DNA of 64,000 bases from an uncultured Bacteroidota bacterium (GCA_903944895.1 CAJATL010000226.1:7762-71761), one strand, 5' to 3'. Counted from the stretch's first letter, positions 12,001 through 60,981 are shown. Program-made: numbers and translations. Notes: a model not told the origin generated them from the letters alone.

Positions 12001-13878
12001 TGCAGCGCCACCATAAACAAAAAGCGCGTTTTCCACACCAAATGATGTAGCCCCCAAGCTAAATCTTGCTCCTTTTTTTAATGCTGGATTGTTTATGGTC
12101 TTGTTTATGGTGTTCATTCCCATTGAAGACACGGCAGAAAGAACGCCAAGCCCTGATCCTATAATAGTACCTTTACCGGCAGCAGTTAATGTTTCAAGAA
12201 CGTGATAATCTTTTAATGATAATTCCGGGTTAGCGGATATTTCAGTTCCCTGTCTTAAAATATCTTGTATTGCGTCATATCCACCAAGCATAGATGCAGA
12301 TGGCAGCGCTGCCTTAATCACCCCTTGGGTTAATGGTTTTGTTAAAAATGATTTTGATCCGCGTAACATGGCTTTTTCAGCCATCCTTACGGCTAATTGT
12401 TTTGATGCTCCTGCAGTAACAAACCTTTTCGCTACGTTCTCTGTAATCTTTGCTAACGCTACTTTGGCGGCGTACTTTCCTGGGGCGGCCAAAAGACCGA
12501 ATAGCGGTGCGTCAAATGAAATACTTACGGCCCCGGCAGCACCCCTTTCAATCCAATTTGAAGGATATTTATCTTCATGTATTCTTCCCTCAATCATTTG
12601 AGTTACAACACCCGGAATACTTCCATAAGCTCCCTGCGTAAGAATAAATTCAGCAGATGATTTTGATGCTGTTTGCTTTAAATATTCATCATTGGCAGCA
12701 AGCATGTACTCATTATATGTTTTTACTACCTCTTTATTTACATATTCTTCGAGGGCTGGGCCAACATCTCCATCAACTTTGTTTGTGTAAATTTCAGAAA
12801 ATATTTTTTTGTACTCATCTTCTGATTGTGGATTTCTGGATAATGCTTCTTCGTGAGAAGCCCTCTCAATTTCTGATAAACGCTCCTGTACCTGTGGCTT
12901 TTCGGTAAATTCTTTGATTTTTTTATCTTGGATTGCTCCGGTTAACTCCAATGCAATATCTTGTTGAATTTGCATTGGATTATAATCAGTATCTTCTAAT
13001 TGTTTTAACCTTGCAAATGCTGTTTTAGCGACTGAAAGCACAGCGCTTCCACCAACAACATAATCAGTAATAGTTTTTAGTACGGATTTATCTTGGCCTT
13101 TTACCTCATTTATTTTATCAACAACCCTTTGTTTTCTTTTTTCAATTTCTGAAAATACCTTACTGCCAATTTCTTCTTTTTTACCTTCAATAGTTTCAGC
13201 CCATATTCTTTTGTTGTCTTGGGTTACGATTTCATTGTAAATTTTATCGTCAGCCTGTTTTCCAGATAAATCAAATGCCTTTTCGTTTTTAGGGTCAATA
13301 ACGTAAACCGAACCGTTGAGGGCTGCTTTAAATGCCTTATCGTTCATTGATGTTTCTTTCATCATCACTGGAACGTCGGACATACTAAACTCTCCCGTTT
13401 TCATTGGAGATATATTAGTTTGCTTTCCGGAAGAATCAGGCGTTTCTTGGGCTTGTTTTTGTGGTATGGTGTCACCGACAACTACCGGTTGCTCTGGTTG
13501 AATTATTTGTTCATCTTCTTCTGGCGAAGGGCTTGGAGATTTTGGACCACGCGAGTAAAACCATTTCGACAAGCCTCCCTGAACAGCATCCTGAAAAGTA
13601 GGAATTGGTTCCGAATTGTCTTTTTTTTTTACTTCACTGGCTTCCGGGTGTTTGTTTAAAAATCCAGATACTTTATCTTCTGGGATATCATACAACGAGC
13701 CATTAAGATCATATCGCACTACTTTTTGCTTTGCAACTGGTGTGCTTGTAGCTGCCGGAGGCGGTGTACTTTGTGATTGTTCTTTAGCTTCCGGATATTT
13801 AGCAAGAAATCCATCAATTTTATCGCTTGGGATTGCGTACATTTTTTCACCTACAACGAAATTCTTTACATCTGGCAT
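1..13878 (-). CDS. giant multidomain polyvalent-type virion/ejection protein, partial (>4626 codons; C-terminus lies left of window)
   Basis: Own translation of the minus strand. ATG at 13878 gives MPDVKNFVVGEKMYAIPSDK... The frame stays open and protein-like: checked codon by codon over 13878-11400 and 9420-1, read through elsewhere. It ends at base 1 in ...ISGVTIPTLALWWMNK. No stop lies inside the window, so the supplied track omitted it; the + strand here carries only short shadow ORFs. Confidence 0.85.
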   Translation of the reverse strand, partial: MPDVKNFVVGEKMYAIPSDKIDGFLAKYPEAKEQSQSTPPPAATSTPVAKQKVVRYDLNGSLYDIPEDKVSGFLNKHPEASEVKKKDNSEPIPTFQDAVQGGLSKWFYSRGPKSPSPSPEEDEQIIQPEQPVVVGDTIPQKQAQETPDSSGKQTNISPMKTGEFSMSDVPVMMKETSMNDKAFKAALNGSVYVIDPKNEKAFDLSGKQADDKIYNEIVTQDNKRIWAETIEGKKEEIGSKVFSEIEKRKQRVVDKINEVKGQDKSVLKTITDYVVGGSAVLSVAKTAFARLKQLEDTDYNPMQIQQDIALELTGAIQDKKIKEFTEKPQVQERLSEIERASHEEALSRNPQSEDEYKKIFSEIYTNKVDGDVGPALEEYVNKEVVKTYNEYMLAANDEYLKQTASKSSAEFILTQGAYGSIPGVVTQMIEGRIHEDKYPSNWIERGAAGAVSISFDAPLFGLLAAPGKYAAKVALAKITENVAKRFVTAGASKQLAVRMAEKAMLRGSKSFLTKPLTQGVIKAALPSASMLGGYDAIQDILRQGTEISANPELSLKDYHVLETLTAAGKGTIIGSGLGVLSAVSSMGMNTINKTINNPALKKGARFSLGATSFGVENALFVYGGAALEGRLSEVTSEDFMESVAMLGFMKAKGIAHEISAFKNERAKAKLRKEIKFTAGELHALDKYDFLLPWEKRMSVRDEFGKKKRMADIDMVRPLSEYGLHELIINKNIPESVKRKILFGSKGMAPMNDIPADDVTLRTTEYGAYVDIRDRRGNLLVSEFYDNPADAQQSVDKYNHLSLNNKYLNKLWALPDEQRKRIGEVTMAKLKEEGLLNGIEPYIAMMPSERLPNEQKVVEDLYAEIDRTIDVLAEEKAKAEEVKKLEEEKKKPQPAPTEVKLTNRDALSSVRNKITELTSETEKIQNEDILANGVVTNETLAKMSEIDAQIELLKQQEVDILSIADSEVEKNTKEINAKIDKLSIKIKAIDEKIGNPKSDEEMAQASEEIDKLQPELEKLEAERQVIIDKTREEVLVGEFTPKEQKKVEKPVEQKKPVPPPNPEIKPVTRNDLSVVRNEIFDLNNQIIDLEKEDEKGNAGKIQELRGRVDELTKKENEIVSILEAEEEKKAKEKEYVNLFDHYATNHGSTNTIRYNKKENKLYEVENTARGKIQEISIEDAALKKFKATQRGKNELEIKEAYIDEVKNQYETEIKELIKKHSEKPAQEKPEVTDPAEVQKIKNSIAEGELILKSGKSNGKKLSPDQLSAIQAQVNREKLKIGMPIDERPAGEVDKEPWDMTDSELEYLYKDQKGRIERLFNTSERDSAEVFKDSRNNFYAKRQGVPLMRIGLEQAKELAWEQLNRDGLMPEGKEKEFYESRVLDKLGIKKMPGFKPVTGEEKILHTRKNGEVITLKDVEELIHGEVTLGEIQRKFKIGFDAATEILKNYNTAKGIKPEQSPEIGNKNYKEGKNQLVGRTMTQTIANGERIVGVVKCVSSDDVVPSHNPETFAKNPNFPTNPDGTTVNSSDYENSVAKQGEIERVSLNPDDRMVFQLPIVDKRGIVFSGTNRTAGRQLAAIRGTDKKFTAILKENAEMYGINPNEIDKIKNPMFVFELKEEMPYTVENWAKFNKDDKKTQSPIEKAIEIGKIITDRARRLLYGIYETADRMSDVTSNPKKVKELIKLFEEEGILLPNEMPRYFDKKAITSTAEGVALVNNILLGSSLSEGTIRTLDAAQMGDIRNKILDSIIPLIKNSALGKSSLQKNVETAIGIINEAKKTGQSLEGWASQVNMFEVKNFDAADLAVAIKLEGKFKEFIKNYNAHVGQLETDFETGVSKERTKADIIDEVLKQSLDNYEKVKSNITKFGQDGKGQVKPDAPNPQQPIKRSSAEHKQYVHERFRAEFSKKGIPGQQIDAAIAIMEARAKSWASEDILNRTPDEWYDRIADVGGGEFMDGTTKLYQLPDGRTVNGKSVSPEIVNGFYSPLEKVIIDAKYDKLPAKQWVEKFSQLKGEEAKWTGLTDWLQSQPGSVTKADIQNFLKDNRIEIVEVVKGTNDKIGINDLTVQKTASGNWSVYGQENGLSVLFRTVDKSEAKTVNEAKKIVLDEQNEDGFDNTKHSQYQLEGQKENYKEILVTLPKQGKGVDYETLSDKQLAEIYEKNIGYNPFEAGESRDYVIDLLKANAGAKTDVQFVNDTHYSEPNIAVHLRMNTRVGADGKKVLFLEEVQSDWGQKGKKEGFIGGGLKSDDLEIIESKDSGRNNPFLPHLGNTKIFTIFNKRTKLKSIQVAYTEEKAIEKELFDHNQNNIGKKSIQSAPFVTETASWTKLGLKVALKEAVKQGVDKIAWTTGEQQNDRWSLEKQVDYIQYEDGFGGNRYVDISHKDGITTLYVDSKTGKITEEKNQRIGSVGKNLEDVIGKELSERVLTDKKSGRIEGEGLKVGGKGMKGFYGSPTEGKLGIIGEVAEKLFKQKVSTTDIETKDLTSPDQIGIERNGKKWELMIGEPGEEPKLFDTYEKAVEARNKLGKVKQTQHSIDITPELRAEVEKGLPKFQINPEQAGRLKYKSELPTDHIFRDAVETTEGARVTDEGLIIRAIRYQKPDQSGSNSVRTGVFYLPYKSTDVRHYRNGKIGYGGKEKHEGEILIKKPIFVRGATGGKAPQAAYDQIKGKGAYNDMVAKVHDATLSSPFGQWSNRKDIPEDVANLLTRYNEGSYYSDNYDIAYDMVRVSKQGNTLKYAILENIVAHAVRKAGYDSVLGYSQKRNNHYFISEIFDVRETTYPMRGEESEIHPDFKFQEGEGIKKGALETLKDGKYVIHALESPDFSTMVHEIAHVFEGDLNYIERGVVKRIGGSEAFARGFERYLRDGNAPDPEMQSLFDKFKTWLTDIYQSLVGSPIEKSLTPEVKKIFDRLLTERKAIEEEPEDEIKEVKSYGAKTRYKGLEIKVGEKYWDNRYGDFYTIEKMTTFGEDDVTATLKYNKGQTREENGSFLLYHIDAKQHTPFNAGNFGAKPDVQPDVKPKEKITFARNDEKIKKIMGEIDGLLGELGKPVFETGGLSKLQPFVGVIGKLVQVGYYKIEDVAKYLAEKGYNDWLPKLQEAYQIFRDESDLSLEVKNSLSNGKEISGFDYRRFVPGKPNEEGVEAGGNVAGGSVNNGPTGTTGAVRPPIRIADEGSLPSPSKEHIVDGKYDIDENQRFASNLAIDRFKVAKGKSFLLADGAGVGKTRMIEVIANEMSGEGKVLIVSLGNVIEDSFVKDAKALGIDLNKFEIGTYDDLRNGKIGQGEYALAIYDESQNLKNPLSGKAIAQSKVNSKHNMFVSATPMDKPEHAVYFLSEITDIPQKEIQKRLGVEIEWKTKNGETFPIVRIPGGVKEYIVKLLELRKEAITKGAMVRREYPFFGDIGDEKHEMNDKHPYSNPQTVAKIEEIHNDRIDNAMSIVIARTVKDVVMNKFTGLNTSSIQGLSEKDMYAKLKKEYESKSLSQNYWVLHSKIEEFKKQERFTMLANIDKINEVGKFDVVYNKVKKALAAGKQVVVVASYVNKVKVKAGSAGSKYGFYEREIPTEETLIYRVEQALAKEGIGVAKIFGGNKNKAYSREQDKFQSGKAKVLLMTSKSGGTGINLDDVVGNSPREMIIATGEYSGDVLEQVLGRVSRRNTKSPAKVTMVYFPNTSDNNRKKRSDEKRKVIRAIVAGTEDLDKARLEGNTKEDEGVIDEIDGGPVRVPKQPAEKKKPVIEDFGTNGIIVKESFDIKDALKSIGAKWIGSQKGWMLPKTKQEEAQAIIDDFNEGSPEGGVNAMAAGGKTQVRDMNMELDDQTGGKKPVDAMQITKEAEKRFDLKIRKGRMHAGSRTLGIFKPWARVIRTKQHKMLDVLAHEIAHDLDYKFFITKGRASKLTPEMKQELADLDYDPSQKRPLEGFAEYMRLYASGADDSIRLAAPKFMAWFEGTWKPANKEVAENIDWYREQVTQWRMQGARLRALNSIDMMDEGKLTRAYKNTKEFLTSKDKRTEVSLKVASQWKDKLSVIDWVFNRMMQQSGVDFVRPSEHAGQIAASRQKTAALTTNRFVLGGTYNNAFEKTGKSLKEVMSPVTKTKKDFEDAILYAWALRAIDLHNRVDKDNNSTPINTGMPLDEAVHLVDTLYTPERQKFTEELTQFMSMVMDYLVEAGGLSQKAKDRILQQNPSYIMLKKVLDKGTFSGGGGNKIFNVGSPIKSFTHGGSDKNIRMPIKMMIREVESIVNAANSIRVARAFIDFMADKQSHKYGLGNWFEKISSDKKKVQFGIRQIEDQLEKIGADLTDADMESLLDVWVNAGYTQSMKNENIVWIPDPETGKKVFYQVHPLFYEAITKGMRPTHLNWIMTTLLVKPNMMLKLGATAFKVSFAVITNPLRDIPTGGLQSKYKGGGRLDKQLMGIWAETFGTGKYINEFRRSGVEMSNFLGEDIDNMNSLLQEAMLKKKMDPGVTWAATPWEAAKQVADITLQNVGYHIIKHPLKSYREALSITESGVRYAEFDAVMRSYEGRIKAAYQAGDQAEVYKLKRDRAIEATNAANEVTLNFKKAGTYGEVLNMMVPFFNPRLQGTFKMIDMLSKKQQQGIDRKMDSRLRYLLKAISGVTIPTLALWWMNK
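2150..2330 (-). other. zincin-like HExxH motif 2 within giant ORF
   Basis: LDVLAHEIAHDLDYKF; codons at 2239-2256. Confidence 0.5.
2900..4260 (-). other. SNF2-family helicase domain within giant ORF
   Basis: Motif I LLADGAGVGKT (4207-4227). Motif II IYDESQNLKN (3994-4008). Motif III SATP. Motif V LLMTSKSGGTGINLDD (3008-3046). Motif VI LGRVSRRN. Confidence 0.8.
5250..5480 (-). other. zincin-like HExxH motif 1 within giant ORF
   Basis: FSTMVHEIAHVFEGDL; the HEIAH codons lie at 5383-5397. Confidence 0.5.
6850..8000 (-). other. conserved uncharacterised module within giant ORF
   Basis: FYSPLEKVI..LPAKQWVEKF..KGEEAKWTGLTDWL ... HLRMNTRVGADGKKVLFLEEVQSDWGQKGKKEGF ... DKIAWTTGEQQNDRW. I recall similar strings in plasmid and phage polyvalent proteins but cannot name the family. 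Confidence 0.3.
9150..9420 (-). other. ParB/Srx-like (DdrB-ParB type) region within giant ORF
   Basis: SSDDVVPSHNPETF ... QLPIVDKRGIVFSGTNRTAGRQLA. The SH(D/N)P plus G(T/N)NR pattern is typical of ParB-like domains in polyvalent proteins, recalled from memory. Confidence 0.4.
9540..9640 (-). other. FtsK-gamma-like winged-helix motif within giant ORF
   Basis: VTLGEIQRKFKIGFDAATEIL resembles the FtsK gamma signature (s.lQRr.riGynRAarii), recalled from memory. Confidence 0.35.
10200..11350 (-). other. Lys/Glu-rich coiled-coil region with internal repeat, within giant ORF
   Basis: Heptad-like K/E-rich sequence. A repeated block occurs twice: TNRDALSSVRNKITELTSE and TRNDLSVVRNEIFDLNNQ. Confidence 0.5.
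12000..12550 (-). other. Gly/Ala-rich hydrophobic, membrane-insertion-like segments within giant ORF
   Basis: Translated segments: GAAGAVSISFDAPLFGLLAAPG, GKGTIIGSGLGVLSAVSSMG, LGATSFGVENALFVYGGAAL. Confidence 0.4.
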
Positions 13879-13890
13879 GATCAATGGTTT

Positions 13891-27253: not shown

Positions 27254-29626
27254 CTAATTTGAAGTTACTAATTTATTCTCGTTCTGCTTATCTAATTCTT
27301 TTAATCTGTAATCGTACTCGAACTTTCTTTGCATTTTTTCGAGGTCTGCTTGTTTTTGTGCCTCGATGATTGCAAGTTCTTTTTGGGTTTCATCTTCTCG
27401 CTTTTGTATTTCATCTTGTGCCTTTAATTTGTTTTGCTGAATAGTATTATCGCTCATTTGTTGTTGGGTGGCTGCCGCGCTTTGTTTAGCCGCCTGATCC
27501 GCCTCAACTTCTTTTTTTGCAATGTAAATCCTCGCATAACTTATCCCTGCAAAGGTATTAATTAATTGTTCGATAAGATAAAGATACTCACTGTACATAA
27601 GTGCTGGAACACCATTCTTGCCGCCAGCCAATGCGTTCATAGCAGCGTTCCTTATTTCTGATTTAAGGGCATCATCCGGAGCGGCGACCATATGTATTCC
27701 GAAAGCAATAGGTGGGTCAAAGCCAGCCGACTTCAATGCGATTACGGCAGCATCCCCGATGATTCTTTTATATGGTGTATCATCATAAGACAAAACAGCG
27801 GCCTGTACCCTTAAAGTAATTGATTTTGCCATCTGTTCTTTCATAGAAAGATACCCGGCATACACACTTCTTAGAGTATTATTTGTGGCAGATACGGCTA
27901 CTTGAGTAACAAATTTTCCCTGCTCACCGGAAGGAGATTGTGAGTTTGAGCTTAACCGGTCTATTCCAGTGATCTCCATTAACTGCTGATATGCTAACTC
28001 GAAACTCATGGCAGCATCGTTGACAACGGTACCAAGTCCTCCTTTTAATTGCTCAATTGGCTTGTGATTAGTAGGGGGAAATTCTACACCTTCCGGGGTA
28101 GCGTTCCAGATGATATGTCCTTTTTGAGAGTACAGCCTTAAGCTGTCCATCGGCTTCCACTTTTCATCGTCCTCCATGGTCATACCCATCAACGACCCAT
28201 ATTCAATAGCCAGACCAGGAGGGGGTGAGTTGGCGATACCATTCTGCAGCCGGTAAAATGTAAGAGCAATCTGATCAAGCATTGGCTTACAGTTTTCCAC
28301 TGGTGGCTTCTCGTCGATCTTGTAAACCTGAATAGGGGTAACCGGTTTTCTTCCGGAATAATCGAAAGCTACATCATGGGTCCTTCCAAAGTCATAAATG
28401 ACATCTGAACCCAAAATCCACTTGGCACCATAAAGAACTTGGGTAGTCTCCTTGGTGGTTAGCTTCTTGTCGTTATTAAAAACCCGGGGTTTTCTTGATG
28501 TACCATTACTTCTTTTTCTGTATGGCTCCGGGAACTCCTCCTCCATGCCATCATCGAGTTTTCTTGTAGTGAAGTACTTGCTGTCATTGCTTAACCAGTA
28601 AGCCACAAGAACCGGAATCCGGCATTTGTAAAAATCATAAAAACCAAGTTCATCAACAGTCTTATCGTAACTCGAGCGATTGCCGTAAACACCCACATAA
28701 TTACCGGCCAGTCCATACAGATCATCATCTGTCATTTCTGTTTCATGCTTAAGGTCAGCAACGGTAATGTATTCGATAATACCCCAATAACTCACGTCAC
28801 TAAAATCTTCTTCACGCGAGCTTTCGATAATCAGGTTGTTTACGTCAAGGTGCCTTGTTCTTACTTCCCCCAGCGCATAATCAAAGGTGTCCATTGTGGC
28901 GGTAATTCCATAGGTAAGAATATCCTTAATGATGGCCCGTTTAATTTTTTTGTCGTTGGAGGCTTTTAGTGTATGCTCCAATGCTCTTTGAAGCCCGATC
29001 TCATAAGTAAGTTTAAACTCACCCATCTGCTCGAACATTCCTAATTCATCAACGCTTGCCGGATAAATCACCTGATCTTCGCCGGTCTCTATCTCCATGG
29101 CCTTCATAAAGGCATCGAGTTTTGATTTTAGCGCCCCCTGTGCGAATCTTTTGAATTTTATGTCTTCACGTAGGTCTCCGGATTTTTCGTCAATAGCATT
29201 GATATTAACCATGTGTTCCTGCCCTTCCATGATACCAATTATGGTGTTCATATATTTAGGCATCGGGGACATGGTATCGTGGAAGTTAATGTTTACAAAT
29301 CCATCTCTGGAAGATTTATTTTTTGGTGGGTTTTTGGTGTCACCTCCATCTTGATATTGTGGTGAGGTTGTGTCTGACTGAAATTCATCAAGGATAAGGT
29401 CTTTGTACAGATTGGTGTCCTGGCGACCCCGGGCATAAGAAAGGTTAATAGCAAACCTGGCAACATCATCTGGTGTTATCGCGCAATTACCCTTACAATA
29501 ATTTGAATAAATGTGTTCTACGAATGATTTACTCCATTGAGAGGAATTTTGCTTGTAATCCGGGTCAACATCATCTGATGGCCTTTCAAAAAACCCTCTT
29601 TTATAGTTATTGCTAATGTCAGCCAT
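27254..29626 (-). CDS. putative portal protein (790 aa)
   Basis: Size, position upstream of scaffold and capsid, and a coiled-coil C-terminal tail. Confidence 0.6.
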   Translation of the reverse strand: MADISNNYKRGFFERPSDDVDPDYKQNSSQWSKSFVEHIYSNYCKGNCAITPDDVARFAINLSYARGRQDTNLYKDLILDEFQSDTTSPQYQDGGDTKNPPKNKSSRDGFVNINFHDTMSPMPKYMNTIIGIMEGQEHMVNINAIDEKSGDLREDIKFKRFAQGALKSKLDAFMKAMEIETGEDQVIYPASVDELGMFEQMGEFKLTYEIGLQRALEHTLKASNDKKIKRAIIKDILTYGITATMDTFDYALGEVRTRHLDVNNLIIESSREEDFSDVSYWGIIEYITVADLKHETEMTDDDLYGLAGNYVGVYGNRSSYDKTVDELGFYDFYKCRIPVLVAYWLSNDSKYFTTRKLDDGMEEEFPEPYRKRSNGTSRKPRVFNNDKKLTTKETTQVLYGAKWILGSDVIYDFGRTHDVAFDYSGRKPVTPIQVYKIDEKPPVENCKPMLDQIALTFYRLQNGIANSPPPGLAIEYGSLMGMTMEDDEKWKPMDSLRLYSQKGHIIWNATPEGVEFPPTNHKPIEQLKGGLGTVVNDAAMSFELAYQQLMEITGIDRLSSNSQSPSGEQGKFVTQVAVSATNNTLRSVYAGYLSMKEQMAKSITLRVQAAVLSYDDTPYKRIIGDAAVIALKSAGFDPPIAFGIHMVAAPDDALKSEIRNAAMNALAGGKNGVPALMYSEYLYLIEQLINTFAGISYARIYIAKKEVEADQAAKQSAAATQQQMSDNTIQQNKLKAQDEIQKREDETQKELAIIEAQKQADLEKMQRKFEYDYRLKELDKQNENKLVTSN

Positions 29627-29773: not shown

Positions 29774-30154
29774 TTACTTACCGCTACCATCGTGCTTACA
29801 GGAACCTTCCGGGCATTTTGCGGCAAAAATCTTTTGTTCATACGGAGAAGCCCATACGCCATCAATACAAGTGTCATTCATCGACAAATTTGGGATATCC
29901 CGGACACAGCCCTTACACCAATCCTTTAAATCAACTTTAATTTTCGGGGTAATGCTTTCAACCTGAACGCCAAGTTCCACCATCAAATCATCGTGCATTT
30001 GACACAATTTATCAATGATATTGTAAGGATCATCACCACGTTCAAGCATTTTAATGACACTATGAAAAAGTGGAGACTTGTAATACCTTTCGCGGCCATT
30101 TTTGAACCGATCAAAAATTTGACTTGATTCGACTTTAATTTTTATGCTTTCCAT
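29774..30154 (-). CDS. hypothetical Cys-rich protein (126 aa)
   Basis: Track ORF, preceded by the leader motif GTAAAACTAAACTATAAA. Confidence 0.55.
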   Translation of the reverse strand: MESIKIKVESSQIFDRFKNGRERYYKSPLFHSVIKMLERGDDPYNIIDKLCQMHDDLMVELGVQVESITPKIKVDLKDWCKGCVRDIPNLSMNDTCIDGVWASPYEQKIFAAKCPEGSCKHDGSGK

Positions 30155-30172
30155 TTTATAGTTTAGTTTTAC
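30155..30172 (-). promoter_or_regulatory. leader motif copy (GTAAAACTAAACTATAAA-ATG)
   Basis: Reverse complement of + strand TTTATAGTTTAGTTTTAC, directly upstream of the ATG at 30154. Confidence 0.45.
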
Positions 30173-30606
30173 GATTTAATAAAATTTGTCTCAACTCCAA
30201 GCATACCAGATTTTGGAATAATCACTTCCTTTACCGGCTTGATTGTTTTAAACTTTTTCTTTTTTTTCTTTTTCTGCTTCTTCTTTTTTTTATAAAAATC
30301 AAAATCAGAACGTTTCATTTTAAAAGCCCCATGAACTTTTACATGGCAATTTTTACACAAAGTAATAAGATCGCTTAGGTTGTTGTGTTCATTTTTGTAA
30401 TGTTCGTATGTAATATGATGAACATGAAGGCTATCCTTACTCCCACACATAACGCAATTATTACCATCTCTTGATAGCACAACCTTCCTAATTTCCTTCC
30501 AGTAGTCAGATAATAGATAATCATGGTAATTTAGCTCTACACACCTTGATTGAAGTATTTTAAATACTTTATCAGTCATTCTTTTAATGTTTTTGCCAAA
30601 TATCAA
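30169..30606 (-). CDS. HNH endonuclease with poly-Lys tail (145 aa)
   Basis: CVMCGSKDSLHVHHITYEHYKNEHNNLSDLITLCKNCHVKVH: paired Cys motifs plus H-N-H. Confidence 0.8.
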   Translation of the reverse strand: MIFGKNIKRMTDKVFKILQSRCVELNYHDYLLSDYWKEIRKVVLSRDGNNCVMCGSKDSLHVHHITYEHYKNEHNNLSDLITLCKNCHVKVHGAFKMKRSDFDFYKKKKKQKKKKKKKFKTIKPVKEVIIPKSGMLGVETNFIKS

Positions 30607-42130: not shown

Positions 42131-42264
42131 CGCGACATTTTACCAGAAATAGTTGTCTCCGTCCCGTGGAGAAAGTTGACTAAGCCCACTAAAATCAATG
42201 GTTTCATTTTTTATCTCAAAAAAATATTTCTGGACAAGAACATTGACTTAATAGATATAATGAC

Positions 42265-42311
42265 GGGGGCCTGGCACGCCACCCGAAACGTTTTTTGCGG
42301 ATGCCACCCCC
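42265..42311 (+). other. long imperfect GC-rich hairpin
   Basis: GGGGG-cc-TGGCA-CGC ... GCG-ga-TGCCA-CCCCC. The loop contains the palindrome AAACGTTT. Confidence 0.4.
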
Positions 42312-42720
42312 TCCATTAATAGGCGATCACACAGCCAGCAATTTCACTTAGTCCAAAGCAGACTGTTAATTTCCTGAATATCAATGTTTTATGATTTATT
42401 ATTGTAAATCTGGGAGTTTGATCACATCTAACTGCCTGATAATCAGATAGTTAACGTATTTTGCCGTATTGCACCAAAAACCACTAAAAAACATCGGGAC
42501 CGTTAACCATTCCCATTCTGGGAATTATGTCCGTTAATATGACTTCATTCTATTTATTGGAATGTGATCCCATTTAAGTAATCGAGTTCATAAATGATCT
42601 TACCGATATGTTTATAAATTCATATCGCTTTTCTTCCCTCCACTGGTTAAAATACTGATCAATTTATTGCACCCTGGTAGCAATATTACTTAATCAGTGT
42701 TAACCAATCATCTATATCAA

Positions 42721-42760
42721 TCTTAACGTTCTTTAACATTCATTAAAGTTCATTAACAGT
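42721..42760 (+). repeat. four tandem 10-bp iterons (consensus CnTTAACnTT)
   Basis: tcttaacgtt / ctttaacatt / cattaaagtt / cattaacagt. Further TTAAC copies at 42451, 42502, 42533, 42647 and 42700. Confidence 0.6.
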
Positions 42761-42787
42761 TTGTAGCATTATTACAATATATCTTTG
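42760..42787 (+). promoter_or_regulatory. putative promoter (TTTG ... TATCTTTG)
   Basis: TTTG at 42760-42763 and TATCTTTG at 42780-42787. The spacer is shorter than the consensus I recall. Confidence 0.4.
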
Positions 42788-42848
42788 CATCGTTGTTTAG
42801 TTCATTGAATGTCTGTAAAGAAACCGAGTTTTAGAAAGGCTTTGGGAG

Positions 42849-42895
42849 GTGTTATAGCTTAGTAGGGGTAACGTTAGCATCCTGAATCATAACAC
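42849..42895 (+). ncRNA. 47-nt structured element closed by a perfect 7-bp stem
   Basis: GTGTTAT ... ATAACAC. The interior has a D-loop-like TAGGGGTAACGTTAGC. Confidence 0.3.
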
Positions 42896-42931
42896 ACAGA
42901 GAGCGCAATAGATAAAGCGGGCACAGAAAAT

Positions 42932-43001
42932 AATACGACATGCGGGGCAGTAAATTAGCTTTAATTAGCTGGTTTAGGGAGTTCGATTCTCCATCGTATT
43001 A
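42932..43001 (+). ncRNA. non-canonical tRNA-like element
   Basis: Perfect 7-bp acceptor-like stem AATACGA/TCGTATT. T-arm GGAG-TTCGATT-CTCC. 8-9 bp central hairpin AAATTAGC-TTTAATTA-GCTGGTTT. No normal D-arm and no 7-nt anticodon loop. Confidence 0.4.
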
Positions 43002-43038
43002 CAATTTAATTTTAACTAAACTAACAGGAGGTAACACA

Positions 43039-43239
43039 ATGCCAAAACAAAACAAATTCACCTACTATAAGGTGATACAAGAAAATTGGGGTAACGGCTG
43101 GGATGATGTGGATTTTGAGGAAGTCAATACAGTGGAAGCGCGGAAGCTGTTTAAAGAGAATTTAAAAGCATACCGCGACAATTCACCGGCACTAATCAGG
43201 GTAATTAACCGCAGGGTATTAAAGGAGGCAACAGCATGA
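43039..43239 (+). CDS. hypothetical protein (66 aa from ATG 43039)
   Basis: Shine-Dalgarno AGGAGG 8 nt upstream. The track start at 42940 would read through the tRNA-like element. Confidence 0.6.
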   Translation: MPKQNKFTYYKVIQENWGNGWDDVDFEEVNTVEARKLFKENLKAYRDNSPALIRVINRRVLKEATA

Positions 43240-43466
43240 AAAGAACAAAACTACAAAGGCTTTTAAAGTCTTACGAAGTTGAAACAATTGGCGGCTATTT
43301 CTGGGTAATCGTTGAGAGCGTAATAAATGGGAACAGGGAACAAGCCCGAGAGCAATTTAAAGAGATGCAACAAGAACAAAGGAAAGAGTTTTTAATTTTC
43401 CTTTGCGTCGGCAATTACACAACATTAAGCGACAGAGATAAAGAAATGTTTATAAAAATTATTTAG
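43236..43466 (+). CDS. hypothetical protein (76 aa)
   Basis: Track ORF with a 4-nt overlap. Confidence 0.55.
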   Translation: MKRTKLQRLLKSYEVETIGGYFWVIVESVINGNREQAREQFKEMQQEQRKEFLIFLCVGNYTTLSDRDKEMFIKII

Positions 43467-43484
43467 CTGTTACAAGTCAGCAAA

Positions 43485-43510
43485 GCGGAGCCGGATTTAT
43501 TCGGCTCCGC
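43485..43510 (+). terminator. hairpin of intergenic cassette
   Basis: GCGGAGCCG-gatttatt-CGGCTCCGC. Confidence 0.5.
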
Positions 43511-43533
43511 TCAATAGTGAGGGCCGCAAAGGT

Positions 43534-43548
43534 GTAAACTAACTAAAT
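43534..43548 (+). promoter_or_regulatory. leader motif GTAAACTAACTAAAT
   Basis: Ends 10 nt before the ATG at 43559. Confidence 0.5.
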
Positions 43549-43558
43549 ATTTTTAATC

Positions 43559-44032
43559 ATGCAAACATTTCAAATTGATCTATTTACCGCGAATATTGCG
43601 GAAGTAGAAATTTCTTACAAGAACAAAGTAAGACCAGCAGACCGGCCAAAACTCGATAACTCAAACGATTGTGCGGATATTTTTAGGCGCATATGGACAG
43701 ATACGCTCGAGCATCACGAGAGCTTTTATTCCTTGATGTTAGACAGGGCAAACAAGGTTTTAGGGGTTTATAGAGTATCAGAAGGGGGAACGACTGGAAC
43801 GATAGCTGACCCCAAAATGATTTTTCAGGCAGCCCTAAAATGTAACGCTGCAGCCCTTATTTTGGCGCACAATCACCCATCAGGGAATTTGATCCCGTCG
43901 GTTTCCGATGTTAAACTAACTGAAAAAATGAAGGCTGCGGGGGTGCTTTTAGATATTCCCGTGCTTGATCATGTAATCTTAGGCATTGATGATAAGTACT
44001 ATAGTTTTGCTGATAATGGTAATGTATTTTAA
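43559..44032 (+). CDS. radC: RadC-like JAB/MPN domain protein (157 aa)
   Basis: LILAHNHPSGNLIPSVSDVKLT: the JAMM motif HxHPSG..S..D. Confidence 0.8.
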   Translation: MQTFQIDLFTANIAEVEISYKNKVRPADRPKLDNSNDCADIFRRIWTDTLEHHESFYSLMLDRANKVLGVYRVSEGGTTGTIADPKMIFQAALKCNAAALILAHNHPSGNLIPSVSDVKLTEKMKAAGVLLDIPVLDHVILGIDDKYYSFADNGNVF

Positions 44033-44082
44033 GCGGTGGCCAGTCCGTTAAATTGTGAGCCGGTCAGTCTTCATAACTGACT

Positions 44083-44097
44083 GTAAACAAACTAAAT
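44083..44097 (+). promoter_or_regulatory. leader motif GTAAACAAACTAAAT
   Basis: Preceded by the hairpin CAGTC-ttcataa-GACTG and followed by the ATG at 44107. Confidence 0.5.
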
Positions 44098-44106
44098 TTT
44101 TAGAGT

Positions 44107-44742
44107 ATGTCAAAAAGCAAATTAACACTTAAGGAAGCGTTGAGTATTGAGTTTTCAAACGAATGCCACAACAAAAGTATAAAGGCTGTGGAAGCCTTTG
44201 TAAATCAGATTAAAGAATTTTATCCTGTTCTTGATGTTGAAATCAATACAGAAGGCGAAGGGCAATATTTATCCTTCACTGATTCGGAAATAATTTTGCA
44301 GGTGGAACCGGTTAAAATCATCATCAAGCAGATGGGATCAATCTACAAAAATGAAATTTACCTGTTTTACAGGAAGGAGTTTAAAAACCTCCGCCATTCT
44401 GCAGAACACACGATTAAAAACACGTTCAAGGCACCAAACGCCATTTACAAGCCAACAACAAAAAAAATTCAGGCTTGGATTGATTATCTCAACTTGGTTT
44501 ACACCGAGTGCGAGAGACAGAACAACGAGAGACAAACCGAAATAGATCGGTTTTACGCATCCATCAAAAACGAGCCGGTAAGGTATTGGCGTGACAGAAC
44601 AGAAGGGGAGATAAGAAAAGGTGGGCTGATATTCACCTTTAAAATCGAATATGGATTTGTTTACAAAAGGATTCAGGTTGATAGCGTTGATTCTACCATT
44701 GAGAATTTTAATCTGATGGCAGACAACAAACTAAAAGTTTAA
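44107..44742 (+). CDS. hypothetical protein (211 aa)
   Basis: Track ORF. Confidence 0.65.
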   Translation: MSKSKLTLKEALSIEFSNECHNKSIKAVEAFVNQIKEFYPVLDVEINTEGEGQYLSFTDSEIILQVEPVKIIIKQMGSIYKNEIYLFYRKEFKNLRHSAEHTIKNTFKAPNAIYKPTTKKIQAWIDYLNLVYTECERQNNERQTEIDRFYASIKNEPVRYWRDRTEGEIRKGGLIFTFKIEYGFVYKRIQVDSVDSTIENFNLMADNKLKV

Positions 44743-44746
44743 AGCC

Positions 44747-44992
44747 ATGAAAACTATTTTCCTATTTTCGTTCATGTTCCTTTCACTTATTTTAAGCGCA
44801 CAGGACAGTTTTAAAGTTGATTCGGCAGGTAAGGTCGTACAAATCAAAATAACGCAGCCCAAGCAGCCGGATAAAGTAATTCAAGTAATAGACACTGTAA
44901 AATATTATCAGGGTGCAAAGGGTGGAGTTTATTACCTCCGCAAATCGAAGAAGACCGGCAAAACATATAAATGTTACCTGAAAAAAGATTGA
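44747..44992 (+). CDS. secreted small basic protein with PBCV-type basic adaptor-like motif (81 aa)
   Basis: Signal peptide MKTIFLFSFMFLSLILSAQ, followed by GAKGGVYYLRKSKKTGKTYKCYL. Confidence 0.5.
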   Translation: MKTIFLFSFMFLSLILSAQDSFKVDSAGKVVQIKITQPKQPDKVIQVIDTVKYYQGAKGGVYYLRKSKKTGKTYKCYLKKD

Positions 44993-45094
44993 TTTACTCT
45001 CTCGGTTAATAGTACTGAAAAGAAGTGCTAAAGCCTTGTAAGCTGAACCGAGACCAAATTTTTTAAACAAAGTATTAATCCGGCCAGCAATGGT

Positions 45095-45865: not shown

Positions 45866-46360
45866 ATGAAAAAAGAATTAAAGAAGGTCAAACAGTTTAA
45901 AGGCCGGCAAATGGATGGCTTTAGTGCCGTTCTGTACCTCAACGATGTTAAAGTTTGTGATGTTATTAATCACGGCGATGGGTCAGCTTTTTATTATGGC
46001 CCATTGCTTACCGGCCAGCAAAAAGAATTATTGAGTGAATTTCAGATGATCGTAAGTAGTTTACCTCCCATCAAAGTAGATGATAACCTTTCCTTTGAGC
46101 CTGATATGGATTACTACCTTTCAGAATTATTGGAAACACAACAGGTGCAGGTAAAACTCGAGAAGCTGTACAAGAATCACATTGTTTTCGGGATTCCTGG
46201 AAATTGGTTTGAATTAAAAAAACTCAAAACACACCTACCTATATCGGAGCTATCCGATAAACACCTTCAAATCTATGTTAATGAAATTAAGTTAAAGCTA
46301 AAGCCAAACGAACAGATTTTAAACACAAATTTAAGGCCGTTACAAGTCGGCAATGAATAG
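45866..46360 (+). CDS. hypothetical protein (164 aa)
   Basis: Track ORF. Confidence 0.6.
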   Translation: MKKELKKVKQFKGRQMDGFSAVLYLNDVKVCDVINHGDGSAFYYGPLLTGQQKELLSEFQMIVSSLPPIKVDDNLSFEPDMDYYLSELLETQQVQVKLEKLYKNHIVFGIPGNWFELKKLKTHLPISELSDKHLQIYVNEIKLKLKPNEQILNTNLRPLQVGNE

Positions 46361-46385
46361 TGAGGGGTCGCCAGCGATGGCGGCT

Positions 46386-46401
46386 GTAAACTAACCTAAA
46401 T
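46386..46401 (+). promoter_or_regulatory. leader motif GTAAACTAACCTAAAT
   Basis: Part of a cassette shared with 43466-43558: GTTACAAGTCRGCAA .. AATAGTGAGGG .. TGTAAACTAAC. Confidence 0.5.
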
Positions 46402-46411
46402 TTTAATTATA

Positions 46412-46769: not shown

Positions 46770-47156
46770 ATGAATGATTTATTTGGAGAAGTAATTTACG
46801 CTTACACACGTAAGCAAGCCGTCGAGGATGGCTTTCAGGTATTGGCACCTGATACAGAGTGCAAAGCAGCCGGCATTAAATATCCGGTTTTTATCAATCG
46901 TACTGTTTGGGACAAGTATGTAGTTGTCCCGAAAATTATGGATGGATGGCAGGATGAATCGGGCCGGCTATGGGATATTCTTTTTATGTTCACACTGGCA
47001 GCAAAAAGGATTCAGGGTAATACCCTACTGTTTAAGTTGTTCGTGCAAAATACAAAGGCCAAGCCCCGCGAAATAACACTAAAAGCGGTGATCGGGCCGA
47101 ATGACATTGATAATCCTCAACCGGCAATAACAATTATGTTACCGGATGAAGATTAG
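46770..47156 (+). CDS. DUF6573-like protein, a family I recall from plasmid/ICE leading regions (128 aa)
   Basis: FGEVIYAYTRKQAVEDGFQV ... GRLWDILFMF ... LKAVIGPNDIDNPQPAITIMLPDED matches the remembered family pattern. Confidence 0.5.
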   Translation: MNDLFGEVIYAYTRKQAVEDGFQVLAPDTECKAAGIKYPVFINRTVWDKYVVVPKIMDGWQDESGRLWDILFMFTLAAKRIQGNTLLFKLFVQNTKAKPREITLKAVIGPNDIDNPQPAITIMLPDED

Positions 47157-58131: not shown

Positions 58132-58544
58132 GTTTCTTTTTTTACCTCGTTCTTTACTTCTTTCTCGGCTTCCTTAAACACTTCATCGTAAAACTTCTTG
58201 CGAAGCAGGTACTTTCTTGGGCTGCACAAGTACTGCTTGTCGGGCCACTGCGTCAACCACTTCGGGATGTGGGCTATTGCGATCTCCCTTTCTTCGTCGG
58301 TGAGGTTAAACCAAAGTCTTTTTGATTCCTCCCTGTCCACCTTTTTTCCATAAGCAAACCAGAATGTGTCGAATCCGATATTTACCTCTTTGATGTTTTT
58401 CTTGATTTTGTAATCAAGGTTTTTGAGAACATAAAGAATGTCTTTATCCCTGACATCAACAACATTCTGGTGCTTTTCCCGAAACTCTATCCGGGCTGTC
58501 TGGAAGTCTATCAACTCCTGTAATCTTTTTACTGATAAGTTCAT
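58110..58544 (-). CDS. hypothetical protein upstream of DnaB (144 aa)
   Basis: Track ORF. By position only, a possible initiator or loader. Confidence 0.5.
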   Translation of the reverse strand: MNLSVKRLQELIDFQTARIEFREKHQNVVDVRDKDILYVLKNLDYKIKKNIKEVNIGFDTFWFAYGKKVDREESKRLWFNLTDEEREIAIAHIPKWLTQWPDKQYLCSPRKYLLRKKFYDEVFKEAEKEVKNEVKKETWLKGTE

Positions 58545-59512
58545 TGTGTTGTGTGTTGAAACATTCCAAGTTCTGTACTTAATCGCTTGTTTGCGATACT
58601 GATGTAGTCAGGGTTTAATTCAAAACCCACGTAATTCCTGTTTAACTTCCTACTTACCAAGGCCGTGGTACCGGCACCCATAAATGGGTCAAGGACTAAT
58701 CCAGCTTCCGGGCAACCTGCTTTTATCATATCAACAATCAATTCTTCTGGAAAAGTAGCGAAGTGCGCTCCTCTGAATGATTTGGTGTTTACCGTCCATA
58801 CTGAACGTTTGTTGCGAATCATTTCACCGGCATCGTTCTTATTCCATCTTTCATGTGCGCCAGAAGCTACTGTTTGTGATGTTCCATTTGGCATGATATG
58901 ATTTTTGTATTTCTCCGATCCTTTCATTACAGTATCTTTACGTCCATCGTAGTTGGCCAGTTCTTGTATGGCTACATTATCGAAGTAATACTGTTTGCTT
59001 TTACTCAACAGGAAAATGTACTCATGTGATTTTGTACACCTGTCGGTTACACTTTCGGGCATTGGGTTTGGTTTGTGCCAGATAATATCTTGGCGTAAAT
59101 ACCAACCATCGGCACGAAGGGCAAAGGCTACCATCCAAGGAATACCGATAAGGTCTTTTGGTTTACACTCTGTTATTATTTTAATGCCAGAAATATTTGT
59201 GCCGTTATTTGTCTTTTGTTTTGATCCGGGGTTGTTGTTATTATTTCTCCACCCCGCACCGGCGTAACTATCCCCCAAATTCAACCACAACGTACCATCA
59301 TCCTTCAATACCCGCTTTACTTCCCTGAATACCTCAACCAGTTTAGCAACAAAAGCCTCCGGTGTTTCTTCAAGCCCTATCTGTGCATCATTTCCATAAT
59401 CACGCAATCCGTAATACGGAGGCGATGTTACGCAACAGTTTACTGATTTACCCGGGATGCCAGCTAAACCAATTAAACAGTCAGTATTTATGATTTGGTT
59501 TATCATAATCAA
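58541..59512 (-). CDS. DNA methyltransferase, N4-C/N6-A beta class (SPPY) (323 aa)
   Basis: Motif IV CCVTSPPYYGLRDYG. Motif I VLDPFMGAGTTALV at the C-terminus. Confidence 0.8.
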   Translation of the reverse strand: MIMINQIINTDCLIGLAGIPGKSVNCCVTSPPYYGLRDYGNDAQIGLEETPEAFVAKLVEVFREVKRVLKDDGTLWLNLGDSYAGAGWRNNNNNPGSKQKTNNGTNISGIKIITECKPKDLIGIPWMVAFALRADGWYLRQDIIWHKPNPMPESVTDRCTKSHEYIFLLSKSKQYYFDNVAIQELANYDGRKDTVMKGSEKYKNHIMPNGTSQTVASGAHERWNKNDAGEMIRNKRSVWTVNTKSFRGAHFATFPEELIVDMIKAGCPEAGLVLDPFMGAGTTALVSRKLNRNYVGFELNPDYISIANKRLSTELGMFQHTTQ

Positions 59513-59883: not shown

Positions 59884-60981
59884 TTAAGTTATCATATTCA
59901 TATCAACATATCCTTGTGCTGTTGCGGTGCTTGTAATGCCACCGGCCTTCATTACTGACCAAACATTACCGGTTTCTCTGGCTGTTTTAGTCAGGAAGGT
60001 GTGCCTTGAAACGTGAAACGTCAAAGGGCTTTCTAATTCCAGATTAGCATACTTTTCTATACTTTTCAATAAGATGTTTACCTCAACATTGCTTACCTTT
60101 TTGAATAGTCCAGGAAAATTATATTCAATCAGGTCTGATACAACATACCACCTATCCACCTCACACTTTATCCCACGATTCGCAATTTTCTTCATCTCTC
60201 CTATTATGATGAACATCTTTCCGTCGATGTACTTGATATTACTTTCGTTCAACGTCGAAACGTCACTGTACCTTAGTCCGGTTGCACAGGAAATTAGAAA
60301 CATATCTCTGGCCTTGGATTGTGGCAATTCTCTGATAGCCGCTACCTGTTCATCGGTCAACGCGAACTTGTTTTTAGTGATTCTTTTTACCTTGTATTTG
60401 AAGTAAGGATTCTTTTGAAGATATCCGGCAGCAATAGCTTGGTTAATGAAAGCCTTGAAGTGCTTGTTGAACTTCCAGATGGTATTCACGGCAAACCCTT
60501 TTTTATTGATGAAATCATTAAAGCGATCCAGCGTGAAGGTATCAAGGTCGCTCATGTAAACAGTGCCGAATTTTTCCAGTATTCTTACAAACCCCATACG
60601 ATCAACATAGGTAGACGCCCTGATACCTCCTTTTATTGATGCCTTACGGCAGAAATCATTAAAGGTGAGTTTTTTATCAATGGCGTATCTGATTGAATTT
60701 GGATTGAAGACCTTGCCGGTTAACCTGTGTTCCTCCTTCATGTTTTCATAAACAGAAAGGGCTTTACGGATCAGTTCATTGGCCTTCATGTAGTCCCTCT
60801 CTCGAGAAGTAACAAACCCCTCTCCCCAATCTGGCTTCCGGCACCAAGCTCCTGTTGCACGGTAAACCGTTTTTTGTTGATCGGGGAAATAAACCCTTAC
60901 ATACACTTGGATTTTATGGTACTCATCCTCCTCCCCGAAAAGAACGGGAGTTATTTTAGCTTCTAAGATACGTGCTGGCAT
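59884..60981 (-). CDS. int: tyrosine recombinase/integrase (365 aa)
   Basis: ATGLRYSDV (Arg), HVSRHTF (H..R.H) and TAQGYVD (Tyr). Confidence 0.8.
   Translation of the reverse strand: MPARILEAKITPVLFGEEDEYHKIQVYVRVYFPDQQKTVYRATGAWCRKPDWGEGFVTSRERDYMKANELIRKALSVYENMKEEHRLTGKVFNPNSIRYAIDKKLTFNDFCRKASIKGGIRASTYVDRMGFVRILEKFGTVYMSDLDTFTLDRFNDFINKKGFAVNTIWKFNKHFKAFINQAIAAGYLQKNPYFKYKVKRITKNKFALTDEQVAAIRELPQSKARDMFLISCATGLRYSDVSTLNESNIKYIDGKMFIIIGEMKKIANRGIKCEVDRWYVVSDLIEYNFPGLFKKVSNVEVNILLKSIEKYANLELESPLTFHVSRHTFLTKTARETGNVWSVMKAGGITSTATAQGYVDMNMIT

Follow-up and report, generated by a model that had tools for sequence, protein, structure and literature searches.

Transfer RNA (tRNA) shapes that punctuate longer transcripts without decoding are well described in eukaryotes and herpesviruses, and mitochondria use real tRNAs in this way. 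The mascRNA/MEN-beta modules of MALAT1 and NEAT1 and the TMERs of murine gammaherpesvirus 68 are cut by ribonuclease P (RNase P) and ribonuclease Z (RNase Z) and give a small CCA-tailed RNA. In co-transcripts of tRNA and messenger RNA (mRNA), including Escherichia coli thrU-tyrU-glyT-thrT-tufB, the phage T4 tRNA cluster, and those of mitochondria, the tRNA units are released by host tRNA-processing nucleases. The phage small RNAs C4 (P1/P7) and CI (P4), which are antisense regulators, are excised by host RNase P from longer transcripts through an acceptor-stem-like helix. A tRNA-like module is also found in the non-coding RNA YrlA, whose two ends pair into the Ro-binding stem, while a loop caps its acceptor-like stem; YrlA further has a GNCGAA(N)G motif, a D arm, a T arm, and a gene position beside rsr (Ro60). 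Mycobacterium smegmatis YrlA is cut by RNase P and CCA-tailed, and members of the family also occur in phages (PMC4201824). Here, we describe a tRNA-like domain of about 70 nucleotides (nt) in the 5′ leader of an operon carried by a 64,000-nt stretch of DNA from an uncultured Bacteroidota bacterium (GCA_903944895.1 CAJATL010000226.1:7762-71761; the window), which, as judged by gene content and terminase matches, is a phage of a Bacteroidota-type host.

By analogy, the element would function most like mascRNA/menRNA, the TMERs, and tRNA punctuation, with no membership in these families by sequence. It shares with the mascRNA/MEN-beta modules and the TMERs a cloverleaf-like fold inside a longer transcript, with conserved acceptor stem and T arm and a variable, non-decoding anticodon-like loop; however, those modules belong to eukaryotes or their viruses and lie at the 3′ end, whereas the element has a bacterial host, lies in a 5′ leader, and is cut only by inference. 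C4 and CI lack a T arm or cloverleaf and act as antisense RNAs, and no antisense target was identified for the element. Punctuating tRNAs are likewise tRNA-shaped units upstream of a protein gene but are real decoding tRNAs, whereas the element has neither a D stem nor a 7-nt anticodon loop. Relative to YrlA, the topology is reversed, in that the element ends at its acceptor stem and has no D arm; in addition, no GNCGAA(N)G motif was visible in 42793-43038, no TROVE/Ro60 match was found among the open reading frames (ORFs) scanned, which were a part of those in the window, and Rfam gave no YrlA or Y RNA match at the element. Based on comparison with one diverged relative, the element is very likely a real, selectively maintained RNA that is tRNA-like but non-decoding. 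The role that we favor, at a probability of about 0.45, is that of a tRNA-derived, selectively maintained processing and stability module that would be cut by RNase P and RNase Z.

Anatomy and conservation of the tRNA-like domain

The domain occupies 42931/2-43001 on the plus strand and is composed of an acceptor stem, a strand that replaces the D arm, a central hairpin, and a T arm. The acceptor-like stem is formed by a perfect 7 base pairs (bp) between AATACGA (42932-42938) and TCGTATT (42994-43000), with an eighth pair (T42931-A43001) and strands separated by only 55 nt. A 12-nt strand (42939-42950) with GGGG at 42944-42947 links the acceptor stem to the central helix. The central hairpin (42951-42976) pairs 42951-42960 with 42967-42976 over 10 bp, including two G-U pairs, and has a 6-nt loop (TTAATT). 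The T arm (42977-42993) has a 4-bp stem (GGAG/CTCC, 42978-42981/42989-42992) set on a non-Watson-Crick G42977/A42993 layer and the loop TTCGATT (42982-42988). The discriminator-like A43001 is followed by CAA instead of CCA. A first-pass annotation, made from the DNA sequence alone, had reported the perfect 7-bp stem, the T loop on a 4-bp stem, and a GGG run, all of which were found here; it had given the central helix as 8-9 bp with a 6- to 8-nt loop, of which the loop agrees with our analysis while the helix is longer (nine of its 10 pairs are conserved). Its placement of the element about 150 nt downstream of a promoter box and just upstream of the gene at 43039 was also accurate, the distances being 145 nt from the box and 37 nt to the start codon of this first gene.

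The cloverleaf-like shape was both the minimum free energy (MFE) structure and the centroid predicted by RNAfold, at -19.5 kcal/mol compared with -11.9 ± 2.4 kcal/mol for 200 dinucleotide shuffles (z -3.17; 0/200 as stable). A loose descriptor, consisting of an acceptor stem, a T arm, and a hairpin of at least 8 bp, was matched in 13 of 1,000 shuffled windows. Because it also matched a coding region (30062-30145; z +0.24), an evident chance hit, the descriptor motif alone is weak evidence. The evidence from comparison is stronger than these motif and fold statistics.

The comparison was made with L005, a 30.8-kilobase (kb) Logan contig of the same gene order and the sole diverged relative found to carry the element, such that all comparative evidence on the element comes from two distinct sequences. 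The same phage was present in many assemblies, with the element identical in each. L005 is about 76% identical to the window across 42137-45053, and its copy of the element (2321-2389) aligned over 73 columns with a mean column identity of 87%, versus 76% in the surrounding block. All 21 pairs of the three helices were found to be retained in L005 despite 7 substitutions at paired positions, with three of the pairs compensatory. The changes were (i) A-U to G-U, U-A to C-G, and A-U to U-A in the acceptor stem; and (ii) A-U to G-C in the T stem. In a simulation, only about 1.2 × 10−4 of random substitution sets of equal size retained all pairs. Nine pairs of the central stem were unchanged, and since both G-U pairs were among them, the plus strand is the one that folds. 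The T loop UUCGAUU, the G53-C61 pair, the U at -1, and the discriminator A were also invariant, and GG was retained in the D-replacement strand. Insertions, deletions, and uncompensated changes were confined to the D-replacement strand (a 2-nt deletion and 3 substitutions), the hairpin loop (a 2-nt deletion), and the short variable region. Conservation of the stems in a homolog, on which the first-pass annotation had let its proposal depend, was thus observed.

This pattern of change also bears on the suggestion that the element is a relic of tRNA-directed integration, i.e., a phage attachment site (attP) matching the 3′ portion of a tRNA gene of the host. A tyrosine integrase is encoded by the phage, and enzymes of this type often target tRNA genes. 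However, an attP normally adjoins int, while 17 kb separate the element from the integrase gene (59884-60981). The acceptor stem also has its 5′ strand, which covaries with the 3′ strand; such covariation between the two halves of the cloverleaf would not be expected if the DNA were a core sequence shared with a host gene, and the G-U pairs indicate an RNA fold. An attachment relic is, therefore, highly improbable.

Relationship of the element to tRNAs

Two features of decoding tRNAs were found in the element: a 7-bp acceptor stem that closes the ends (42932-42938/42994-43000), and a T arm in which GGAG/CUCC and one non-Watson-Crick layer take the place of the 5-bp stem beneath a loop of the T54-Psi55-C56-R57-A58 type. 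Together with overall length, the acceptor stem and the UUCGAUU T arm are what the element shares with canonical tRNA (RF00005). It differs by lacking (i) a D arm with a 3- to 4-bp stem, the 3-bp hairpin of the window MFE structure having no counterpart in L005, in agreement with the first-pass remark that a normal D arm is missing; and (ii) a 5-bp anticodon stem with a 7-nt loop. The central stem is instead 9-10 bp and carries a loop of 6 nt in the window (8 with the terminal U-A pair open) versus 4 nt (6) in L005, with no common 7-nt register.

ARAGORN at default settings called 0 tRNA and 0 transfer-messenger RNA (tmRNA) in the window and L005. At an 80% threshold, the element of the window was drawn with a 2-base or 4-base 'anticodon', and the relaxed search of L005 returned a different, implausible 98-nt structure. 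The relaxed mitochondrial mode placed five overlapping 'tRNAs' within 280 nt and is thus unspecific. No Rfam family reached its threshold on the element. The Rfam tRNA model had no match to the window copy even at E ≤ 10 (93-nt search), while the L005 copy scored 22.5 bits against a gathering score of 29 (E 0.014; 241-nt search) in an end-to-end alignment with the D stem unpaired and one loop position deleted. The Rfam mascRNA model scored 15.5 bits on the L005 copy (gathering 42.5) and had no match to the window copy. Overall, the relaxed ARAGORN and Infernal/Rfam searches that the first-pass annotation had foreseen gave no credible tRNA, tmRNA, or Y RNA, apart from the subthreshold tRNA score of L005. 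A tmRNA was rejected, with negative default and relaxed ARAGORN searches, no Rfam match, and acceptor strands only 55 nt apart. Also rejected was a split or intron-containing tRNA that would join the T arm to an upstream stem-loop (element 1, described below), since the acceptor stem drawn by the ARAGORN intron mode at a 70% threshold contained a mismatch in addition to four G-U pairs.

These results leave little room for a suppressor or other decoding tRNA, whether with an ochre-type UUA anticodon or with an 8-nt loop reading four bases, as had been speculated. UUA does occur in the loop of both copies and is placed at positions 34-36 in the Rfam alignment of L005, and several adjacent minus-strand genes lie in one frame with a single TAG or TAA between them. 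However, the loops differ in length (6-8 versus 4-6 nt) with no shared 7-nt register, there is no conserved D stem, ARAGORN made no default call, and its relaxed calls, with 2- or 4-base 'anticodons', are nonsensical. Each of the in-frame neighbors separated by a single stop was found to have its own ATG a few codons on, and the large genes conform to the standard code, with the terminase and the DnaB-like helicase matching PHROG families over most of their length without interruption. A decoding function is, thus, most improbable.

In a related phage with a terminase 44% identical (L303), the region 2262-2372 was found to hold a real tRNA-Met (CAT) directly after TATCTTTACATCG and before TAGTTCATTGAA, flanks that in the window are merely 5 nt apart (42780-42808). 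The tRNA-Met of L303 has a C1/A72 mismatch and may be of the initiator type. Its position between the same flanks suggests that a tRNA gene was gained or lost here, next to the promoter, and identifies the promoter-proximal leader of the phage group as a site of tRNA genes, and the element is probably tRNA-derived. The question is then whether it could be a decaying pseudogene, left from a phage tRNA gene in the leader and without present function. The tRNA-Met directly after the same promoter-proximal sequence, the degraded D stem and anticodon loop, and the L005 copy being nearer to the tRNA model than the window copy would all be consistent with such decay. Neutral decay would, however, break the stems, yet pairing survives each of the 7 substitutions in the helices, with both bases exchanged in three of the pairs, and the T loop is invariant, which renders a functionless relic improbable.

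A covariance model built from the window and L005 copies (R1; self-scores 97 and 92 bits) was found to recover genuine, ARAGORN-confirmed tRNAs at 15-27 bits in unrelated IMG/VR contigs. Elements with an acceptor stem and T arm but without an ARAGORN call were also detected in unrelated IMG/VR contigs at R1 scores of 22-25 bits (L038 1854-1923 and L034 639-709), and viral contigs may harbor further elements that resemble tRNAs without being canonical.

Putative promoter and structured leader

A scan for TAnnTTTG revealed a putative promoter of the Bacteroidota type at 42760-42787 on the plus strand, with a -33 TTTG (42760-42763), a 16-nt spacer, and the -7 box TATCTTTG (42780-42787). The Bacteroides -7/-33 promoter consensus is TAnnTTTG/TTTG. 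The box TATCTTTG is the sole intergenic plus-strand box of its type between 41633 and 44002, and L005 has TAATTTTG at the matching place. Transcription would start near 42792, which would give a leader of about 245 nt up to the ATG at 43039. No terminator-like site was found between the tRNA-like element and the downstream gene. The central proposal of the first-pass annotation, a non-canonical tRNA-like element under a plausible Bacteroidota promoter, is therefore retained, with stems conserved through compensatory changes in one relative.

The leader upstream of the element was found to contain several further structured or conserved parts. A conserved block at its 5′ side (AACCGAGTTTTAGAAAGG and the bases that follow; 42822-42848, plus strand) is predicted to pair with 42896-42920; the resulting helix, with two compensatory pairs by RNAalifold and single-sequence folds of the two sequences, is tentative. 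It would enclose element 1 (42849-42895, plus strand), the second 47-nt structure noted in the first-pass annotation, which has a perfect 7-bp closing stem (GTGTTAT/ATAACAC) and a 33-nt loop. Element 1 alone has an insignificant fold (z -0.49). At the same position relative to the conserved flanks, L005 has the stem GTAACTG/CGGTTAC, such that five of the seven pairs are altered on both sides and all pairs are retained (simulated chance about 8 × 10−4). The loop sequence is conserved in L005 (AGTAGGGG ... TAGCATCCTGAA; also given as AGUAGGGG ... UAGCAUCCUGAA and AGUAGGGG / UAGCAUCC), and L005 has an additional GNRA-capped hairpin inserted 3′ of element 1. An invariant 26-mer, AATAGATAAAGCGGGCACAGAAAATA (42907-42932, plus strand; identical in L005), lies directly 5′ of the tRNA-like domain and overlaps its first two bases. 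On the 3′ side of the domain, an A/U-rich spacer (43002-43038, plus strand) with the Shine-Dalgarno sequence AGGAGG (43026-43031) is well conserved in L005. In folds of the whole leader of the window and L005, the tRNA-like domain remained an independent unit. Two further ideas on the leader were dropped: a kissing interaction between GAAUC of element 1 and GAUUC of the T arm, which is not kept in L005; and element 1 as an RNA anti-CRISPR (clustered regularly interspaced short palindromic repeats) mimic of a repeat, as its stem sequence varies. We know of no CRISPR repeat matching element 1.

The position in a 5′ untranslated region, 37 nt before a start codon, and the several conserved structured parts (element 1, the possible enclosing helix, and the invariant 26-mer) could point to regulation in cis, in which the structured leader would bind a tRNA-binding protein or a ligand and control downstream translation or stability after the model of the tRNA-mimicking thrS operator. 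However, no tRNA-binding protein is encoded downstream, and there is no conserved alternative pairing with the Shine-Dalgarno region. Occlusion of the latter by CUCC of the T stem was considered and dropped, since the CUCC:GGAG pairing that is possible in the window is lost in L005. Control in cis thus appears quite unlikely.

Upstream of the promoter, 650 nt of non-coding DNA (42131-42780, plus strand) are largely conserved with L005 1480-2150. The intergenic alignment has a mean column identity of 82% with long identical runs, and this stretch has several predicted hairpins, e.g., GGGGGCCTGG...CCACCCCC at about 42265-42311. No Rfam match was found in 42131-42780.

Distribution in related phages

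Searches for further homologs of the element returned L005 as the sole diverged relative. When R1 was run against 46 terminase-related IMG/VR phage loci, 0 matches were found. DNA patterns, exact or degenerate, that represented the element or its flanking sequence had no match in IMG/VR, a 22-mer had none in the Joint Genome Institute (JGI) metagenomes, and blastn with 42300-43300 had none among 50,697 phage records. The 16-mer GATAAAGCGGGCACAG had 32 matches in IMG/VR, mostly to one unrelated conserved sequence with the rest scattered, and 0 with the flanks or T loop of the element. A central-hairpin pattern gave at least 120 matches each in metagenomes and GTDB genomes; among the matches listed 0 had a T arm, and these look like chance or a recurring unrelated sequence. 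At the protein level, the 66-amino-acid (aa) product of the first operon gene had 7 relatives with only L005 syntenic, L005 was the sole diverged relative for the 105-aa and 211-aa neighbor proteins, and the 312-aa protein had no relative in IMG/VR. Contigs with identical proteins were the same phage with an identical element.

Two contigs with partial similarity were also noted. In L331 (600-1000), unrelated sequence gives way abruptly to identity with the window at a point within the 66-aa gene (window position about 43133), and the contig was probably misassembled as a chimera or spans a recombination junction. The idea of a wider family, recognized by the motif TAGGGGTA downstream of promoters, was dropped, as only L284 fits. 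The latter (4218-4292) has a compressed leader, TATCTTTGCATAGTAGGGGTATGTTAG...AAAATTAGCTTTAAATAG, with the element 1 core AGTAGGGGTA and the 5′ half of the central hairpin; it is without a T arm, and its BLAST support is weak (E 0.13 and 5.6).

The phage and its early operon

The terminase of the phage shares 28-30% identity with those of Flavobacterium, Cellulophaga, and Maribacter phages. The minus strand carries the structural and replication genes, and the plus strand is filled by small genes from 36 to 50 kb. The element lies at the head of an early operon on the plus strand. The first gene (43039-43239; ATG 43039, preceded by AGGAGG at 43026-43031) encodes the 66-aa protein, which has no known family. 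An alternative 99-aa ORF from ATG 42940, reported by some gene callers, was rejected, as the same frame in L005 has three in-frame stops. The 66-aa gene is followed by a 76-aa gene, a RadC-like JAB gene (43559-44032, plus strand), a 211-aa gene, several small genes, and a DUF6573 gene (46770-47156, plus strand); 164-aa and 96-aa genes and one weak methylase-like match also belong to the operon. The recognizable genes (RadC-like JAB, DUF6573, and the weak methylase-like match) are of kinds found in anti-restriction and anti-defense regions.

Two twister ribozymes were identified within the operon. A twister-P3 ribozyme at 46328-46402 (plus strand), between the 164-aa and 96-aa genes, scored 44.6 bits in Rfam against a gathering threshold of 39.9 (RF03154). 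A twister-P3-like ribozyme with an inserted hairpin at 43459-43550 (plus strand), between the 76-aa and RadC genes, scored 28.2 bits (E 4 × 10−4 in a 221-nt search), below the Rfam threshold. L005 has twister-P3 copies above threshold at both syntenic positions, with 54.7 bits (2827-2898) for the counterpart of 43459-43550 and 48.6 bits (5204-5279) for that of 46328-46402. As predicted from these matches, the early transcript is self-cleaved at at least two twister sites.

Several other features of the window were noted. A single minus-strand ORF of at least 4,630 codons (1-13890) extends past the left end of the window; it comes directly after three same-frame genes (19284-13891), with a single TAG or TAA between each. 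An HNH endonuclease gene (30169-30579, minus strand) is in a low-GC stretch between a 790-aa gene (27254-29626, minus strand) and the terminase gene. An N6/N4 DNA methylase gene (58541-59506) and the tyrosine integrase gene (59884-60981) are also on the minus strand, and the phage may be temperate.

Discussion

The anatomy of the element corresponds to the 'top half' of a tRNA, with a coaxial-type stack of acceptor stem and T arm, a canonical T loop, and a strand whose GG could form the elbow, in a molecule that would no longer decode. The D and anticodon arms appear to have been replaced by one long hairpin with a loop free to vary. It is by this top half that a tRNA is recognized by RNase P, RNase Z, and the CCA-adding enzyme, while the ribosome and most synthetases read the parts that the element has lost. 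Cleavage by host RNase P is, therefore, the most likely mechanism. The structural prerequisites for RNase P and RNase Z processing are present, namely, the acceptor/T-arm stack, the T loop, and the absence of an encoded CCA. The last is the context in which RNase Z acts, and the single Flavobacterium tRNA gene that was compared likewise has no encoded CCA and is followed by CAAT. In M. smegmatis YrlA, which is likewise tRNA-like, an acceptor-like stem of 7 bp was found to suffice for cleavage by RNase P (PMC4201824).

In this model, RNase P would cut just 5′ of A42932 (or U42931), where the 26-mer AATAGATAAAGCGGGCACAGAAAATA would be the 5′ leader of the predicted site, and so release the structured part of the leader upstream of the cut; RNase Z or exonucleases would then trim 3′ of A43001. 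The products would be a stable tRNA-like RNA of about 70 nt and an mRNA with a defined 5′ end, which would begin with the spacer at 43002-43038 as a 37-nt leader. Should 3′ cleavage be poor, the mRNA would keep a base-paired, nuclease-resistant tRNA-like cap at its 5′ end. Together, the tRNA-like unit and the two twister ribozymes may split the polycistronic early transcript into separate units. An effect on mRNA stability or translation is speculative. Among the four roles that had been proposed in the first-pass annotation, an RNase P signal is the best fit to the anatomy and context (acceptor/T-arm half, U at -1, no CCA, and twister operon), although the cleavage itself is a pure inference.

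Several further considerations weigh against the processing module. RNase P might cut less well, or at a shifted position, given the additional U-1:A73 pair and the lack of a D arm. The invariance of the central stem and the 26-mer hints at a sequence-specific partner, which would be superfluous for a plain processing signal. The absence of R1 matches from the 46 terminase-related loci indicates that the element is no general requirement of the phage group. With regard to conservation of the pairs, the shuffle control of the pair-counting tool is powerless at n = 2, with 121 of 500 shuffles reaching the observed values.

The hint of a specific partner could be accommodated by a trans-acting tRNA mimic. 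Here, the released RNA, alone or with the 5′ leader domain, would serve as a decoy or sponge for a host factor that recognizes tRNAs by their acceptor end or elbow (e.g., a tRNA-targeting defense toxin, a modification enzyme, the CCA-adding enzyme, or elongation factor Tu) and would thereby shield the tRNAs of host or phage at an early stage of infection. The maintenance of the tRNA top half under selection, the invariant central stem and 26-mer, and the position at the head of an early operon with anti-restriction/anti-defense-type genes are consistent with this possibility. However, no target was identifiable, the element is absent from the 46 related phage contigs, and it has no terminator on its 3′ side and, hence, is no stand-alone gene. 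The version of the decoy directed at anticodon nucleases is weakened, as the anticodon-like loop that most known enzymes of this kind target is the least conserved part, while a decoy for factors reading the acceptor end or elbow is still conceivable; as a whole, the decoy is rather unlikely. A more specific form, which we judge unlikely, has the leader as a phage non-coding RNA (a 5′ domain of about 110 nt plus the 70-nt tRNA mimic) that, once RNase P and RNase Z had set it free, would work in trans as an anti-defense decoy and be expressed first in a twister-cut anti-defense operon; it would be aimed at a host system that senses, modifies, or cleaves tRNAs by way of the acceptor end or elbow.

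If cleavage of the processing module proves true, the phage would use a degenerate tRNA shape purely as punctuation, through the tRNA-maturation enzymes of its host and in combination with twister ribozymes. To our knowledge, no case of punctuation by a non-decoding tRNA shape has been described in phage mRNAs. The natural role of twister ribozymes is largely unknown, and they would gain a concrete, testable setting. If the released RNA were instead a decoy, it would represent a new RNA-based counter-defense. Elements of this type, which are missed by tRNA finders and Rfam, are probably under-counted.

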